A DNA stretch of 30,062 nucleotides from an uncultured archaeon (lineage in GTDB: Archaea; Thermoplasmatota; Poseidoniia; MGIII; CG-Epi1). Below, one piece after another: positions 12,790 through 29,325 of this stretch. A program made the translations under genes and the position numbers. The stretch spans positions 1-30,062 of the forward strand of contig CAZXZT010000001.1 in assembly GCA_964645695.1 (NCBI GenBank), given 5' to 3'. A model generated the notes under the pieces. The model saw only the letters and a list, made by a program, of their open reading frames with translations, did not search any database and was not told the DNA's origin. The number at the start of each line of letters is the position of its first letter. The first letter of the stretch is position 1.

Positions 12790-15830
<3,041 letters not shown>

Positions 15831-22975: not shown

Positions 22976-24235
22976 ATGCCGACGGTGGCAGAAAAGTTCA
23001 TAAGCGACAATGGCGCGAAGTTCCATGACCGCATCAGGATAAGTACAGACAAAAAAACATACGAGGGGGTTTTGTTACCTAGACATAGTTTTTCGGGAAG
23101 TAATATCGTGGTCCTGAAACTTGACAACGGCTATAATATTGGAGTTTCTGTAGAAGGGGCAGAATTGACGATTCTTTCAAAGGCGAAGAAAAACAAGAAA
23201 GAATTTCCTGAAAAAAAGAAGAACAAAGGACTGAGGGATATTTCCGTACTGGCAACCGGGGGCACTATTGCATCCTTCGTCGATTACAAAACGGGAGCTG
23301 TAAGTCCGGCAATAACTGCTGAAGAATTGGTAAATTCAGTCAGCGCACTGGACGAGATTGCAAACATCAACGCCGAACCTCTTTTCTCATTGGCTTCTGA
23401 GGATATGACACCCAAACATTGGAAGAAAATAGCAAATAAAGCGAAAGAGATTCATGACAAGAAACAGCACGGAATAGTAATTGGACATGGGACTGACACT
23501 ATGGCCTACTCGGCCGCTGCACTCTCATTTCAACTGCCTGAAATATCCAACCCTGTAATATTCACTGGTGCGCAACGTAGCCCAGACAGACCCTCGAGCG
23601 ACGCGCACTTGAATCTGACAGGAGCTACCAAAGCTGCTATGACCGATCTGGGTGAGATTGCTGTCGCCATGCATCAAACCACAGATGATGAAAACGTAGC
23701 TATATGGAGGGGGACGCGAGTCAGAAAAGCTCATTCTTCAAGAAGAGATGCCTTTATGTCTCCGAACGAAGCGCCGTTGGGTCTGGTAAAAGAACATGTA
23801 GAATATAGAGGCAAGTATCGTCCCGTTGCAAAGGAAACTAGACTGGAATCTGGCTTTGAGGATAATATCGGAATGGTATGGTCGCATCCTGGACTTAGAA
23901 TTGAAGACTGGGAGAGTATAACTTCCAGTAAAAAAGGAGTGATTATCGCTGGAACTGGATTAGGACATGTCAAATCGGAACTTCTAGAAAGTATTGGTAA
24001 AACGGCCAAAGACATGCCTGTGGCTGTTACAACTCAGTGCCTGGGAGGATCCACAAATCTTAATGTGTACAGAAATGGAAGAGAACTGCTTGGAAAGGGA
24101 GTCGTAGAGGCTTATGATACACTACCAGAAACGGCGTTAGTGAAGATGATGTGGCTTTCGAAACACAAAACCGATGAAGTTAGAGAATTAATGGGCAAGA
24201 ATCTAGTTGGAGAAATATCGAATTCTCGGAAATAG
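22976..24235 (+). CDS. gatD: Glu-tRNA(Gln) amidotransferase subunit D
   Basis: N-terminal EGVLLPR...VVLKLDNGYNIG, ATGGTIAS, HGTDTM, GAQRSPDRPSSDA, RKAHSSRRDAF, GTGLGH, LPETALVK. Shine-Dalgarno GAAGGAG. Confidence 0.96.
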   Translation: MPTVAEKFISDNGAKFHDRIRISTDKKTYEGVLLPRHSFSGSNIVVLKLDNGYNIGVSVEGAELTILSKAKKNKKEFPEKKKNKGLRDISVLATGGTIASFVDYKTGAVSPAITAEELVNSVSALDEIANINAEPLFSLASEDMTPKHWKKIANKAKEIHDKKQHGIVIGHGTDTMAYSAAALSFQLPEISNPVIFTGAQRSPDRPSSDAHLNLTGATKAAMTDLGEIAVAMHQTTDDENVAIWRGTRVRKAHSSRRDAFMSPNEAPLGLVKEHVEYRGKYRPVAKETRLESGFEDNIGMVWSHPGLRIEDWESITSSKKGVIIAGTGLGHVKSELLESIGKTAKDMPVAVTTQCLGGSTNLNVYRNGRELLGKGVVEAYDTLPETALVKMMWLSKHKTDEVRELMGKNLVGEISNSRK

Positions 24236-24276: not shown

Positions 24277-25392
24277 ATGATTAAGCCCCGACATCAAGAA
24301 TTAGCGGATTTGCTAATTAACCATTCATGTTCTCTGAAAAAAGGCGAGAGGTTGTTGATCGAGGCCTTTGACATACCTGAAGAAATGGTTATCGCTACTG
24401 TCAGAGCCGCAAGAGAAGTTGGCGGATTGCCATTTGTTTCATGGAAAAATAATCTGATCCTCAAAGAACTAATAACTGAGACTACTGATGACCATATGGA
24501 CTTGATAGGTTCTGTTGAAAAATTCAGAATGGAGAAAATGGATGCCTACATCGGCTTCCGGGGAAGTCTGAATATTGCCGAAATGTCGGACGTCGAATCT
24601 GAGAAAATGGCTATTTATCAGTCAAAACTGTTACAAAAAGTGCATTTTCAGGAGAGAGTACCAAATACAAAATGGGTAGTTCTGAGATGGCCGACACCAT
24701 CGATGGCACAGCAGGCCAACATGTCGACTGAAGCATTCGAAAGATTCTACTTCGATGTATGTTGCCTGGACTATACTAAAATGGCTAAAGCAATGAAACC
24801 TCTCAGAGAATTAATGAACAGGACAGACAGAGTCCATATCAAAGGACCTGGAACAGATCTGCGTTTTTCAATCGATGGAATACCTGCTGTCTCCTGTGCC
24901 GGTGAACACAATGTCCCTGATGGTGAGTGTTTTACGGCACCCGTGAAAGACTCGGTAGAAGGGCATATTCAATTCAACGCTGAAACATTGTACCAAGGGA
25001 CGGTGTTCAACGACGTAAGGCTGGAATTTGAGAAAGGTAAAGTCGTCAAGGCAACTGGGAGCGATGATGAAAAAATAAATAACATTCTGGACTCTGACGA
25101 TGGCGCAAGGTATATTGGTGAATTCGCAATCGCCTTCAATCCGCATATAACAGAACCAATGAAAGATATTCTTTTTGATGAGAAGATAGCTGGAAGCTTT
25201 CACTTCACTCCTGGAAACGCATATGACATGGCTGACAACGGTAACAGGTCTGACGTGCACTGGGACATGGTTCTCATTCAGAGACCGGACTATGGGGGCG
25301 GAGAGATATGGTTTGATGACGTGCTGATTAGAAAGGATGGAGATTTTGTTATTTCGGAATTGAAGGGCCTAAATCGAGGAAATTTAGTATAG
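24277..25392 (+). CDS. Aminopeptidase, M29 (thermophilic metalloprotease, AmpS/PepS) family
   Basis: [54 protein letters not shown]. Confidence 0.93.
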
Positions 25393-26516
25393 TGGTAAAC
25401 GAAAAGAAAGTAAATGCAATCGCTGATGCGGAACAGGCAGGTCTTTACTATTCCAGCAATGCTGAGCCTGGTTATACCAGAAAAATGAATGAAAAGGAAT
25501 CGCTCTTTTTTGATATGAGCGGAAAACCATTAAAATCAAAGAGAGAACTCAAAAGAGCAATCGAACTCAGAATCCCACCAGCCTGGACTAAAGTTTGGAT
25601 TTGCGATAAAAAGAACGGACATTTGCAAGCCACAGGAATAGATTCCAAAAAGAAAACTCAGTACATTTATCACCCAATCTGGACACAATTAAGGAGCGAA
25701 GCCAAATTTGACAAAATGGTCTCATTCGGAGAAGCTCTCCCCAAAGTAAGGGACCAGTACTTCGAAGATCTGGCTAAGGAAGGTAACCAGAAACAAAACA
25801 ATATGCCTTATGAAAGAGTAATGGCCCTTATTGTCAGATTGTTGGATACCACATTCATTCGTATAGGAAATGAAACTTCAAGAGATGACGAGAAAGCCAC
25901 TTATGGCTTGTCAACTATGCAGGACGAGCATATGGATTTTGAACCAACTGAAATAACAGATGAAGATGATAAATGGTACGATTCCCAGGTGGGTGGTAAA
26001 TTCACATTCGTTGGAAAAAGTGGAAAGAAACATGAAATCGAGATAAAGGATGAAATCTTTGTGGACCTCCCGGCCCTCATTATGCTGTGCAAGTATACAA
26101 AAAAGGAAAGGGGAGGTGACCTCTTTGCATTTTTTGACGGAGAAGGAAAGACACACGATGTCAAAGCTTACCACGTCAACGAATACATACAGGAAATTGC
26201 AGGAGAAAAATTCACGGCCAAAGATTTCAGGACATGGGGAGGGACAAAACTGGCTGCCAGGGAATTGACGAAGTTCAAAAGCAAAGATAACAAAGCCCAA
26301 CGCAAAAAGAATATAACCAAAATGGTTAAAGCCGTTTCAAGTCAGCTGGGTAACACACCTGCCGTTTGTAGAGGATCGTATATTCATCCCCGATTCATAG
26401 GAGACTATCTCAAAGGATCCTTCTTTAGATTGTGGAAGGATAGTCTTGAGGGAGAAAACTTAATCCACCTCACAGAAAACGAAAGTCACGTAATAAGGTA
26501 TCTAAAAAATAGATAG
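25392..26516 (+). CDS. DNA topoisomerase IB, short bacterial/poxvirus type
   Basis: LRIPPAWTKVWIC, HLQATG, QYIYHP.W, and the catalytic set RIGNE (Arg), GKSGK (Lys), KDFRTW (Arg), LGNTP (Asn at the His position), SYIHP (Tyr). Confidence 0.93.
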   Translation: MVNEKKVNAIADAEQAGLYYSSNAEPGYTRKMNEKESLFFDMSGKPLKSKRELKRAIELRIPPAWTKVWICDKKNGHLQATGIDSKKKTQYIYHPIWTQLRSEAKFDKMVSFGEALPKVRDQYFEDLAKEGNQKQNNMPYERVMALIVRLLDTTFIRIGNETSRDDEKATYGLSTMQDEHMDFEPTEITDEDDKWYDSQVGGKFTFVGKSGKKHEIEIKDEIFVDLPALIMLCKYTKKERGGDLFAFFDGEGKTHDVKAYHVNEYIQEIAGEKFTAKDFRTWGGTKLAARELTKFKSKDNKAQRKKNITKMVKAVSSQLGNTPAVCRGSYIHPRFIGDYLKGSFFRLWKDSLEGENLIHLTENESHVIRYLKNR

Positions 26517-26547: not shown

Positions 26548-26766
26548 ATGGCTCTAAGTGACCTTACACCAAGGGACAAGAAAGTTTACGAATACCTGAA
26601 AGCCAAGGATTTTGTCGAGAATGCATGGTCTACGAGTAAGGCTGCCAGAGCGCTGAAGATGAAAGAAGACGATGTTTATGTTTCACTCTGTAATCTAGCT
26701 GAATACATGAGGAACAACATCCATATTCACTACAGGGATGGTTCGATCCGAATCGGAGCCAACTAG
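26548..26766 (+). CDS. Small winged-helix-like protein, 72 aa
   Basis: LTPRDKKVYEYL...WSTSKAARALKMKEDDVYVSL..L followed by a beta hairpin. TTTAAACA 22 nt upstream. Confidence 0.6.
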   Translation: MALSDLTPRDKKVYEYLKAKDFVENAWSTSKAARALKMKEDDVYVSLCNLAEYMRNNIHIHYRDGSIRIGAN

Positions 26767-27136: not shown

Positions 27137-28258
27137 GTGCACAAAAGACTAGGCGCTTCCGTAATTATAGTGATGCTTATGACAAGTATCTTTGCTTATT
27201 CTGCACCTACAGTTCAGGGAGAAGAAACTGAAAATGGGTTACTGAGCAATCCTATACCTTTGCATCTAAATCTGAAGGAAGCTGCTGAATTTTCACCTGA
27301 AACTAAATCGGACATTGAATATATTGCTGCGGAAGAAAAGTATTCTTCCCACGAACAAAACACTCCGCCACCCGTTTCAACACGAAATAAAGGAGAGTTC
27401 AAGTCAATGGGTATGTGGGAGAGTGACCCTGTTGGCTACGAAGTAACCATAACTAGTGTAATGTTCAACCTATGGTGGGTTGAGGATCCGGACGATGAGG
27501 ACTATGATGCGAATCTAGAGCTCAGATGGACTGTGTTCCTCGATGGTGAGCAAATATTCCAGTATGAGGACAATGAGGATGACAATGATGGGGATGAATA
27601 CGAGGATGGAACAGGTCCTTGTGACCAAACAAGAGATAATCCCTGTGAATATGCAGAGTCACCAACTAATGATTTTCCAGAAACTGTAGTCCAAAGCGGA
27701 CAAACACTTTCTCTTGAGGCTGAAATGAAGGCCTTTCAGGCCATCTATATCTACTATGACAACATGAGTCGAGACTCGGGAATGATGATTATGGCAAATG
27801 CTGTTAGTTTTGGAAATTCAAATATCGGAAGTGATACAGTAGGGTTTGAATTTGTGCAAGCATGGGGAACAAACGTACAAGAAGCAATTGATGGTAACTT
27901 TCTAACAATTATAGTAGACAATATTGAAATCGATAATTCCCAGCAAGTAAGTGGCTACCCTATGATAACCGAAGGTGCAACTTACGACTTCAATGGAACG
28001 AGTGTAAAATCTACAATGATAACTTGGAAAATCGAGGATGAATATGCAAAACTAGAACAGACCATAATTAGTTTCTCATATGGACGAAAGGCGTCAACAA
28101 CTACGCCCCCAATATCTATTAATATTGTAGATTTACCAAGTGCAAAGTCAAGCCAGAGTGGTGAAGACGGGTTGTTACCAGAAAGTTTACTAGGATTTGA
28201 AATTCTAGTGTCTGCGCTTGCCTTAATGGCTGTGGCGCTAAACAGAAGAGAACTTTAA
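27137..28258 (+). CDS. Secreted acidic surface protein with C-terminal PGF-CTERM-like anchor (LGF variant)
   Basis: N-terminal signal peptide, D/E-rich body, and terminal GLLPESLLGFEILV + hydrophobic helix + NRREL. Paralog of 28276-29325. Confidence 0.8.
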   Translation: MHKRLGASVIIVMLMTSIFAYSAPTVQGEETENGLLSNPIPLHLNLKEAAEFSPETKSDIEYIAAEEKYSSHEQNTPPPVSTRNKGEFKSMGMWESDPVGYEVTITSVMFNLWWVEDPDDEDYDANLELRWTVFLDGEQIFQYEDNEDDNDGDEYEDGTGPCDQTRDNPCEYAESPTNDFPETVVQSGQTLSLEAEMKAFQAIYIYYDNMSRDSGMMIMANAVSFGNSNIGSDTVGFEFVQAWGTNVQEAIDGNFLTIIVDNIEIDNSQQVSGYPMITEGATYDFNGTSVKSTMITWKIEDEYAKLEQTIISFSYGRKASTTTPPISINIVDLPSAKSSQSGEDGLLPESLLGFEILVSALALMAVALNRREL

Positions 28259-28275
28259 TAAAACGAACTCAATGC

Positions 28276-29325
28276 ATGGGCTCCATGAGAATGCCACTCG
28301 CTTTCCCAGTTACTGCAGTTTTTGTCATAGCCCTGTTTGCAATTGTCAACGATACAGACGGAGAGGAACCAGAATATCAGAATCCTGATATCCAACTTAA
28401 GTTTAATTTGAAAGAGGATGCAGAGTCCTTAACACAACAGACCAAGATGCCTGACGAACCCGAGGCCCATTCGACCGGATCTGCAGACTATGATCAGTAC
28501 CCTTTCTTCAGAAGTAATCGGCAACCTGCCAAGGTCAGTACCTGGACCAGTCTACCTGCCGAATTTGACGTTTCAATAAACATTGAGACTGCAGATATAT
28601 GGTGGGTAGGGAAAGACCCTGATTACGAGGCTGACTGTGAATGGACCTTCTATATCCATCACAACGATCAGGAGGTAAGCGAGAATGTTGAAACTTGTTC
28701 AAGCAATGGAGATGAGCTTATCAGGGAAACATACAATGTTGGTACTACCATTGACCTTGTTACTGGAGATACCTTCGCTCTGGAACTATGGTACGAAGGA
28801 TGGGAAGATGTTGACATCTACCACGACAATGTGACCTATGATACTGGATTAAATGTAGGAGGTAGCCACGTTATTTTGTTTGGTGGAATGTGGAAGGGCT
28901 CAGAAGTCACTGTCGAGTTCTCCGAAGCTTGGCCCACCAACTGGGACACAAACATAAGAGCCGGATATATCATGGTCATGGGCGCTGACGGGTACATGGC
29001 AGATAACAATAAAGCTAGTGATATGGAAGGTTCGGAATACTCTATCCAGATGGCAAATGGAACTGTAGATGTAACGTCTACCATCATAAAATGGACTGAA
29101 GTCACTGGCAATGATCTGAAGATAATGATGGATTATACGGCCTTTGACCATATGGGTAACAGCAGTGCAAACGGTACTCTTAGTGCCCCAATAGTAACGT
29201 TGACTCTTGAGAAGGACCAAAGCGGACTACTTGGAGATGAAGGCGGATTCCTAGGCTTGCCCGGATTCGAAGTAATGATAGCTATTCCGGCAATAGCATT
29301 CGTGGCAAGGCGATTCAGGAACTGA
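28276..29325 (+). CDS. Secreted acidic surface protein with PGF-CTERM-like anchor
   Basis: Signal peptide and terminal GFLGLPGFEV + hydrophobic helix + RRFRN. Confidence 0.82.
   Translation: MGSMRMPLAFPVTAVFVIALFAIVNDTDGEEPEYQNPDIQLKFNLKEDAESLTQQTKMPDEPEAHSTGSADYDQYPFFRSNRQPAKVSTWTSLPAEFDVSINIETADIWWVGKDPDYEADCEWTFYIHHNDQEVSENVETCSSNGDELIRETYNVGTTIDLVTGDTFALELWYEGWEDVDIYHDNVTYDTGLNVGGSHVILFGGMWKGSEVTVEFSEAWPTNWDTNIRAGYIMVMGADGYMADNNKASDMEGSEYSIQMANGTVDVTSTIIKWTEVTGNDLKIMMDYTAFDHMGNSSANGTLSAPIVTLTLEKDQSGLLGDEGGFLGLPGFEVMIAIPAIAFVARRFRN

Follow-up and report, generated by a model that had tools for sequence, protein, structure and literature searches.

How did a short, bacterial-type topoisomerase IB (TopIB) come to sit among the housekeeping genes of a planktonic archaeon, and what might it add to a cell that also has DNA gyrase? 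The question is raised by contig CAZXZT010000001.1 of assembly GCA_964645695.1, a 30,062-nucleotide (nt) stretch from an uncultured member of the class Poseidoniia that we refer to as the window. An open reading frame (ORF) at 25392–26516 on the + strand, beginning with GTG, encodes a 374-amino-acid (aa) TopIB of the short type. Residue numbers below are those of this product, and nt positions are those of the whole window. In the reviews and primary papers examined, the only archaeal TopIB described is the long, eukaryote-like form of Thaumarchaeota and their relatives (PMC2647321, PMC8185306, PMC4824112, PMC2621148). Short TopIB appears in them only for bacteria and viruses (PMC2621148, PMC2647321, PMC4824112, PMC8185306), and in one review Topo VI is said to be alone among euryarchaeal enzymes in its ability to relax positive supercoils (PMC2647321).

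The explanation we favor, and consider very probable, is that the gene specifies a catalytically active short TopIB that reached the Poseidoniia in one old transfer from bacteria, descended mostly vertically with losses, and serves as an accessory swivel. As an enzyme it belongs to a familiar kind; the gain concerns its distribution and evolutionary history, not its mechanism. What is new is the extent of Poseidoniia TopIB, its single-clade history and its clade-specific hairpin. NCBI names near-identical proteins DNA topoisomerase IB of “Candidatus Poseidoniia”, “Poseidoniales” or “Thermoplasmatota archaeon”, and in the full-text literature on TopIB together with Marine Group II/III, Poseidoniales, Thermoplasmatota or Euryarchaeota we found no description of the Poseidoniia clade.

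The gene encodes an intact short TopIB

An initial annotation of the window had claimed a complete catalytic set in a 374-aa short TopIB, and both Pfam domains, the catalytic residues and a confidently modeled fold were indeed found. The N-terminal DNA-binding domain, with its IPPAW and GHLQATG blocks, was matched by Top1B_N_bact (PF21338) at residues 39–84 (25506–25643, + strand; E = 3.5e-19, 68.7 bits against a cut-off of 27). The catalytic core was matched by Topoisom_I (PF01028) at residues 100–326 (25689–26369, + strand; E = 2e-34, 119.4 bits against a cut-off of 23.7). Pfam gave no match to an N-terminal core of the PF02919 type, and the size of the protein lies within the ~310–400 aa range of short TopIBs. 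No NCBIfam model matched the protein.

Catalytic residues and insertions were read from an alignment whose 70 rows are homologs from archaea, bacteria and viruses. Arg157 (codon 25860–25862), Lys209 in GKSGK (26016–26018), Arg280 in DFRTW (26229–26231) and the nucleophile Tyr330 in SYIHP (26379–26381), all encoded on the + strand, are invariant across these rows. Asn321 in LGNTPAV (26352–26354, + strand) is the bacterial counterpart of the His found in poxviruses and eukaryotes. Its column holds Asn in 66 rows and His in the other four. One of these four is from another Thermoplasmatota genome; the rest are from a giant-virus metagenome-assembled genome (MAG) and two further IMG/VR contigs. 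Judged by alignment, R157, K209, R280, N321 and Y330 constitute the bacterial form of the TopIB catalytic pentad. Within the genus, where synonymous sites are unsaturated, the ratio of nonsynonymous to synonymous substitution rates (dN/dS) was 0.03–0.09, and by this measure the gene is under strong purifying selection.

By sequence, the best solved relative, and the sole one found, is the TopIB of Deinococcus radiodurans (2f4q/3m4a), matched over residues 39–369 with E = 7.5e-38. An AlphaFold2 model built from the homolog alignment had a mean predicted local distance difference test score (pLDDT) of 91.1 and a predicted template modeling score (pTM) of 0.84. When this model was submitted to Foldseek, the D. 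radiodurans enzyme was recovered (3m4a, E = 4e-19), as were variola TopIB–DNA complexes (2h7f; template modeling (TM) scores 0.66/0.77, root-mean-square deviation 4.3 Å); human Top1 and Xer recombinases ranked below both. The two-domain clamp fold of short TopIBs is present in the predicted structure.

If the protein works as its D. radiodurans and poxvirus relatives do, its two domains would clamp duplex DNA, and Tyr330 would attack one strand to form a 3′-phosphotyrosyl link, assisted by R157, K209, R280 and N321. The broken strand would swivel and then be resealed, with positive and negative supercoils both relaxed without ATP or Mg2+. Relaxation of both supercoil signs independently of ATP and Mg2+ is established for the Deinococcus and poxvirus TopIBs (cited in PMC2647321).

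Phylogenetic placement

We built a careful maximum-likelihood tree from 103 rows and 355 columns under LG+C20+F+G4, with ultrafast bootstrap and SH-like approximate likelihood ratio (SH-aLRT) supports, and rooted it on giant-virus MAG sequences. The bootstrap stopped short of full convergence, with a correlation of 0.985. All Poseidoniia TopIBs form one clade (97/84), which divides into the copies of family f1, the Marine Group III-like family to which the window genome belongs (99/93), and those of Marine Group II (MGII; 100/97). The sister of the Poseidoniia (100/96) is a clade in which two members carry names, both of Planctomycetota MAGs. Sequences from Trueperaceae and Rhodothermales branch next, and the whole group is nested among bacteria. 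This nesting of the archaeal clade within bacterial TopIBs in the rooted tree agrees with the bacterial horizontal origin proposed in the initial annotation. Acquisition and domestication are both supported, with the qualification that the event is not particular to the window genome and appears to be old and class-wide.

A search of 1.84 billion cluster representatives gave 9,189 relatives, counted at E <= 0.001; 711 of them reached E <= 1e-30. In a quick tree, for which 38 unbiased 50%-cluster representatives were added to the row set, the clan made up of f1, MGII and the Planctomycetota-labelled sequences was intact at 99.

These placements suggest that the gene was taken up from bacteria only once, by the ancestor shared by all Poseidoniia (Marine Groups II and III) or by a very early member of the class. 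Inheritance would afterwards have been mostly vertical with many losses, and in MGII the gene would also have moved between loci. One old transfer followed by descent is the simplest account, and it is supported by a hairpin, described below, that is lengthened in both archaeal clades and not in the sister clade.

The TopIBs of other Thermoplasmatota (L160–L167) are canonical, bacterial-like short forms that branch among bacteria, away from the Poseidoniia. On this sequence evidence, they were acquired independently. A single origin of all Thermoplasmatota TopIBs was rejected: the constraint costs 106 log-likelihood units (p = 0.005 in an approximately unbiased test), for a group that was defined after seeing the tree. 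A viral source was also considered. Scans of IMG/VR found no close viral relative, the best matches being 23–36% identical and mostly from giant-virus MAGs. Viral origin or cargo was set aside on these identities, and giant-virus MAG sequences served as the outgroup.

Distribution among Poseidoniia

Counting PF21338 matches in species genomes, we found TopIB in 118/301 genomes of the class, in both of its orders and in 16 of 30 genera; among high-quality genomes only, the count was 26/74. The order of the window genome had 30/45. In the rest of the phylum there were about nine matches in 290 genomes, concentrated in one family (f10, 5/8 genomes) with a few others elsewhere. Presence within the class is genus-specific. 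For example, two genera have the gene in 34/42 and 15/18 genomes, versus 0/15 and 0/18 in two others. The window's own genus has 24/31, and its genomes without TopIB are 55–88% complete. As to whether the clade was already documented as widespread in Euryarchaeota, it is widespread, spanning both orders of the Poseidoniia, and the documentation consists of database names, with no paper found.

Copies in MGII lie at several unrelated loci. In one MGII genome (G202) there are two TopIB copies, close relatives of each other, on separate contigs (L090, L091). Genus g22 belongs to family f3, yet its TopIB falls among the copies of family f4 in the gene tree and has the same downstream genes as they do (L103, L104 and L116 versus L093–L094 and L115), a likeness that suggests transfer of a segment between MGII families. 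We also observed that a divergent MGII TopIB is adjoined by an ORF of 262 aa that weakly matches a histone fold (L109:835–1623, − strand; PF00125, E = 2e-4).

A clade-specific hairpin

An acidic insertion ahead of the GKSGK lysine had been picked out in the initial annotation, and the 70-row alignment confirms it. The stretch, EPTEITDEDDKWYDSQ (residues 184–199; 25941–25988, + strand), contains seven acidic residues and one basic residue among its 16. Measured from H180 to F206, the segment has 11–12 residues in every bacterial row and in the Planctomycetota-labelled sister clade. It has 18–19 in MGII copies, with one exception of 13, and 25–26 in family f1, where the window protein has 25. 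Judged from these lengths, the EPTEITDEDDKWYDSQ stretch is a real 14-residue insertion relative to bacterial TopIBs. Its KWYD motif is invariant across f1, and its acidic flank is variable. Family f1 has a further specific insertion of six residues, EGNQKQ, at residues 130–135 (25779–25796, + strand); segment 127–141 is 15 residues long in f1 rows versus nine in bacteria and most MGII rows.

In the AlphaFold2 model, with strands assigned by DSSP, the hairpin insertion is a lengthened turn between strands 181–186 and 199–207, with pLDDT of 69–81. By strand order, K209 is in the next turn, at the opposite end of the same sheet. The insertion would accordingly point away from the active site. One could regard the lengthening (11 to 18 to 25–26 residues) as an archaeal adaptation that docks the swivelase on chromatin, the replisome or the transcription machinery, or that tunes it against gyrase. 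We offer this as a speculation that is probably wrong. If it were true, short TopIB would define the lineage and be under regulation, as one component of a supercoiling kit of largely bacterial style (gyrase, TopA-like enzyme and TopIB), and that kit would belong to the most abundant planktonic Euryarchaeota.

Comparison with known enzymes

The D. radiodurans TopIB (2f4q, 3m4a) shares with the window protein the PF21338 and PF01028 architecture, the Asn-for-His pentad and ~31–32% identity over nearly the full length. It differs in lacking the 14-residue acidic KWYD insertion and the six residues at 130–135, and the window gene has an archaeal host and lies in a distinct clade with MGII relatives. 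Poxvirus TopIBs (variola 2h7f and 3igc; vaccinia 1a41) are alike in fold, clamp and small size, but identity is 17%, and they have His where the window protein has Asn321. The TopIB relatives of giant viruses branch outside the prokaryotic clade.

With the long thaumarchaeotal and eukaryotic TopIBs (Caldiarchaeum 6z01; Dahmane 2016, PMC4824112), the window protein shares the core family PF01028. Unlike them, it has neither a eukaryote-type N-terminal core nor a linker, and it has 374 aa versus more than 500. The structural match is weaker (TM 0.43), and the evolutionary origin of the window protein appears to be separate and bacterial. The Planctomycetota-labelled marine clade (MCH7573011.1, MCZ6836750.1), sister in the careful tree, is 45–49% identical, but its hairpin has 11 residues and it lacks the 130–135 insertion. 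The protein is not a tyrosine recombinase or integrase, as there was no Phage_integrase match in Pfam, Xer proteins appeared only at Foldseek E > 0.01, and mobile-element context is absent.

Genomic context

The neighbors of TopIB are archaeal housekeeping genes by Pfam: GatD, an M29 peptidase, DUF357 and NadA. Together with the NCBI names of the near-identical proteins, they mark the host as an archaeon. Directly upstream is the M29 aminopeptidase gene (24277–25392, + strand; PF02073), an adjacency kept in family f1. As the initial annotation had reported, the two genes overlap; the GTG start of TopIB and the TAG that ends the M29 gene have a single base in common, reading TAGTG at 25390–25394. 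This overlap suggests co-translation in one transcript, and in family f1 TopIB is probably co-transcribed with M29. GatD, subunit D of the archaeal Glu-tRNA(Gln) amidotransferase (22976–24235, + strand; PF18195, PF00710, PF17763), belongs to the same conserved block. Downstream is a conserved 72-aa ORF, orf72 (26548–26766, + strand), recognized by synteny and at empty sites and with no Pfam match. In family f1, TopIB is one member of a GatD–M29–TopIB–orf72 string.

The order HEAT–GatD–M29–TopIB–orf72–DUF357 is shared by nine other f1 genomes, four of the same genus and five of a second genus. Such recurrence shows that the contig is no chimera at this point, and on that synteny and the native composition a chimera or a contaminant was rejected. 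The G+C content of TopIB (0.405) and its G+C at third codon positions (GC3, 0.413) lie inside the range of neighboring genes. The window has no tRNA gene, the neighbors include no integrase, and the flanking repeats of TopIB are only short ones, most likely chance matches. Promoter- and terminator-like sites were at shuffle level. The initial annotation was therefore right that mobile-element hallmarks are absent and that composition is not foreign, and its description of the gene as domesticated fits the synteny in two genera, the native composition and the low dN/dS.

Some f1 species that lack TopIB (97% and 94% complete), as well as the sister family f2, have M29 followed directly by orf72 (L127:5110–5180, L128:5113–5183, L129:5116–5172). 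The window's genus has TopIB alone in this interval. In g3, the other f1 genus, M29 and orf72 are separated by TopIB, a pterin-4a-carbinolamine dehydratase and an MscS channel (L113:6011–7595). Since the M29–orf72 junction is either empty or variously filled, it is a site of gene gain and loss, an indel hot spot of this order.

The orf72 product is 54–85% identical across both families of the order, and its gene adjoins M29 directly where TopIB is absent. Farther downstream are two adjoining ORFs of 373 aa (27137–28258, + strand) and 349 aa (28276–29325, + strand), neither of which matches a Pfam family. Across the genus they keep their synteny but diverge quickly, with 33–58% identity versus 70–85% for their neighbors.

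Other topoisomerases in the host

Coexistence with gyrase, which the initial annotation had assumed, was found as well. DNA gyrase subunit B is encoded about 10 kb upstream of TopIB (13872–15797, − strand; PF00204; TIGR01059 at 982 bits, above cut-off). GyrA was not found in the window genome's 84.6%-complete assembly, but it is present in 28/31 genomes of the genus. We attribute its absence here to an assembly gap: the window does carry gyrB, and three same-genus genomes have gyrA at a distance of ~61 kb upstream of TopIB, beyond this 30-kb contig. Topo VI-A is present in the window genome. The single type IA enzyme of that genome has 587 aa (G000 contig C139, L168:340–2103, − strand) and scores 401 bits with the bacterial topA model TIGR01051, below the cut-off of 456, versus 171 bits with the archaeal topA model.

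By sequence affinity, gyrase, the TopA-like enzyme and TopIB are a largely bacterial-style topology kit. We asked whether TopIB compensates for a lost gyrase or Topo VI and rejected this, as GyrA occurs in 291/301 genomes of the class and Topo VI-A in 148/151, with or without TopIB. TopIB is a fourth topoisomerase, dispensable and accessory, and would act as a swivel beside gyrase, Topo VI and the TopA-like type IA enzyme.

Alternative explanations

Several results weigh against a single old transfer with vertical descent. TopIB is absent from ~60% of Poseidoniia species, including genomes that are 93–98% complete, from which it follows that the gene is dispensable. The direction of transfer depends on a long-branched giant-virus root and on a bacterial sample of 45–60 rows from more than 9,000 clusters. 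In the larger quick tree, f1, MGII and the Planctomycetota clade form an unresolved trichotomy. A later insertion in f1 would explain the differing loci of MGII and f1, and the empty M29–orf72 sites in f2 and in some species of f1, just as well as loss would. The trichotomy and the empty sites would allow a rival account, in which the class ancestor did not hand the gene down and there were two or more acquisitions, with f1 and MGII drawing separately on related marine bacteria, or a transfer between the orders within the class. Copies of f1 and MGII are only 29–37% identical, when f1 and many bacterial copies are 40–47% identical, and the two groups have no neighboring genes in common. Within MGII, copies from families f3 and f4 are intermingled in the gene tree, and loci differ. 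We nevertheless regard multiple acquisition as unlikely, since the careful tree unites all Poseidoniia copies, the division between f1 and MGII mirrors the two orders, and the same hairpin is lengthened in both archaeal clades, compared with 11 residues in the sister clade and bacteria.

Single transfer and an active relaxase also have to be set against two further possibilities. A virus or mobile element could carry the gene as cargo, or the contig could be a chimera or binning contaminant, and the gene would then not be a settled chromosomal one. The M29–orf72 junction is an indel hot spot where g3 has TopIB together with a dehydratase and a channel gene, and a preprint reports topoisomerases of unspecified type on mobile elements of the ocean, with a tentative assignment to MGII for one of these. 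Against these stand the same housekeeping-gene order in nine independent MAGs, the native composition, the lack of tRNA, integrase and flanking repeats, and the distance of the closest IMG/VR matches, and we find the idea scarcely credible. It is also conceivable, but very improbable, that general relaxase activity has been lost, leaving a site-specific cleaving or recombinase-like enzyme or a non-catalytic DNA binder whose acidic hairpin blocks DNA. TopIB and tyrosine recombinases share a fold, with XerH and XerA appearing as weak structural matches, poxvirus TopIB is sequence-specific, and 7/16 residues of the insertion are acidic. However, the five catalytic residues and the N-terminal domain are kept invariant under strong purifying selection, and the model would put the insertion in the turn between sheet strands 1 and 2, at the far end from the K209 turn.

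Significance

A short, bacterial-type TopIB is a settled chromosomal gene in ~40% of species of the Poseidoniia, the dominant planktonic Euryarchaeota of the surface ocean. Beside a gyrase of bacterial derivation and a TopA-like enzyme, it is a further case of archaeal DNA-topology control built from bacterial parts. The genus-by-genus series of presence and absence offers a natural setting for learning what a swivelase adds to a gyrase-bearing cell.

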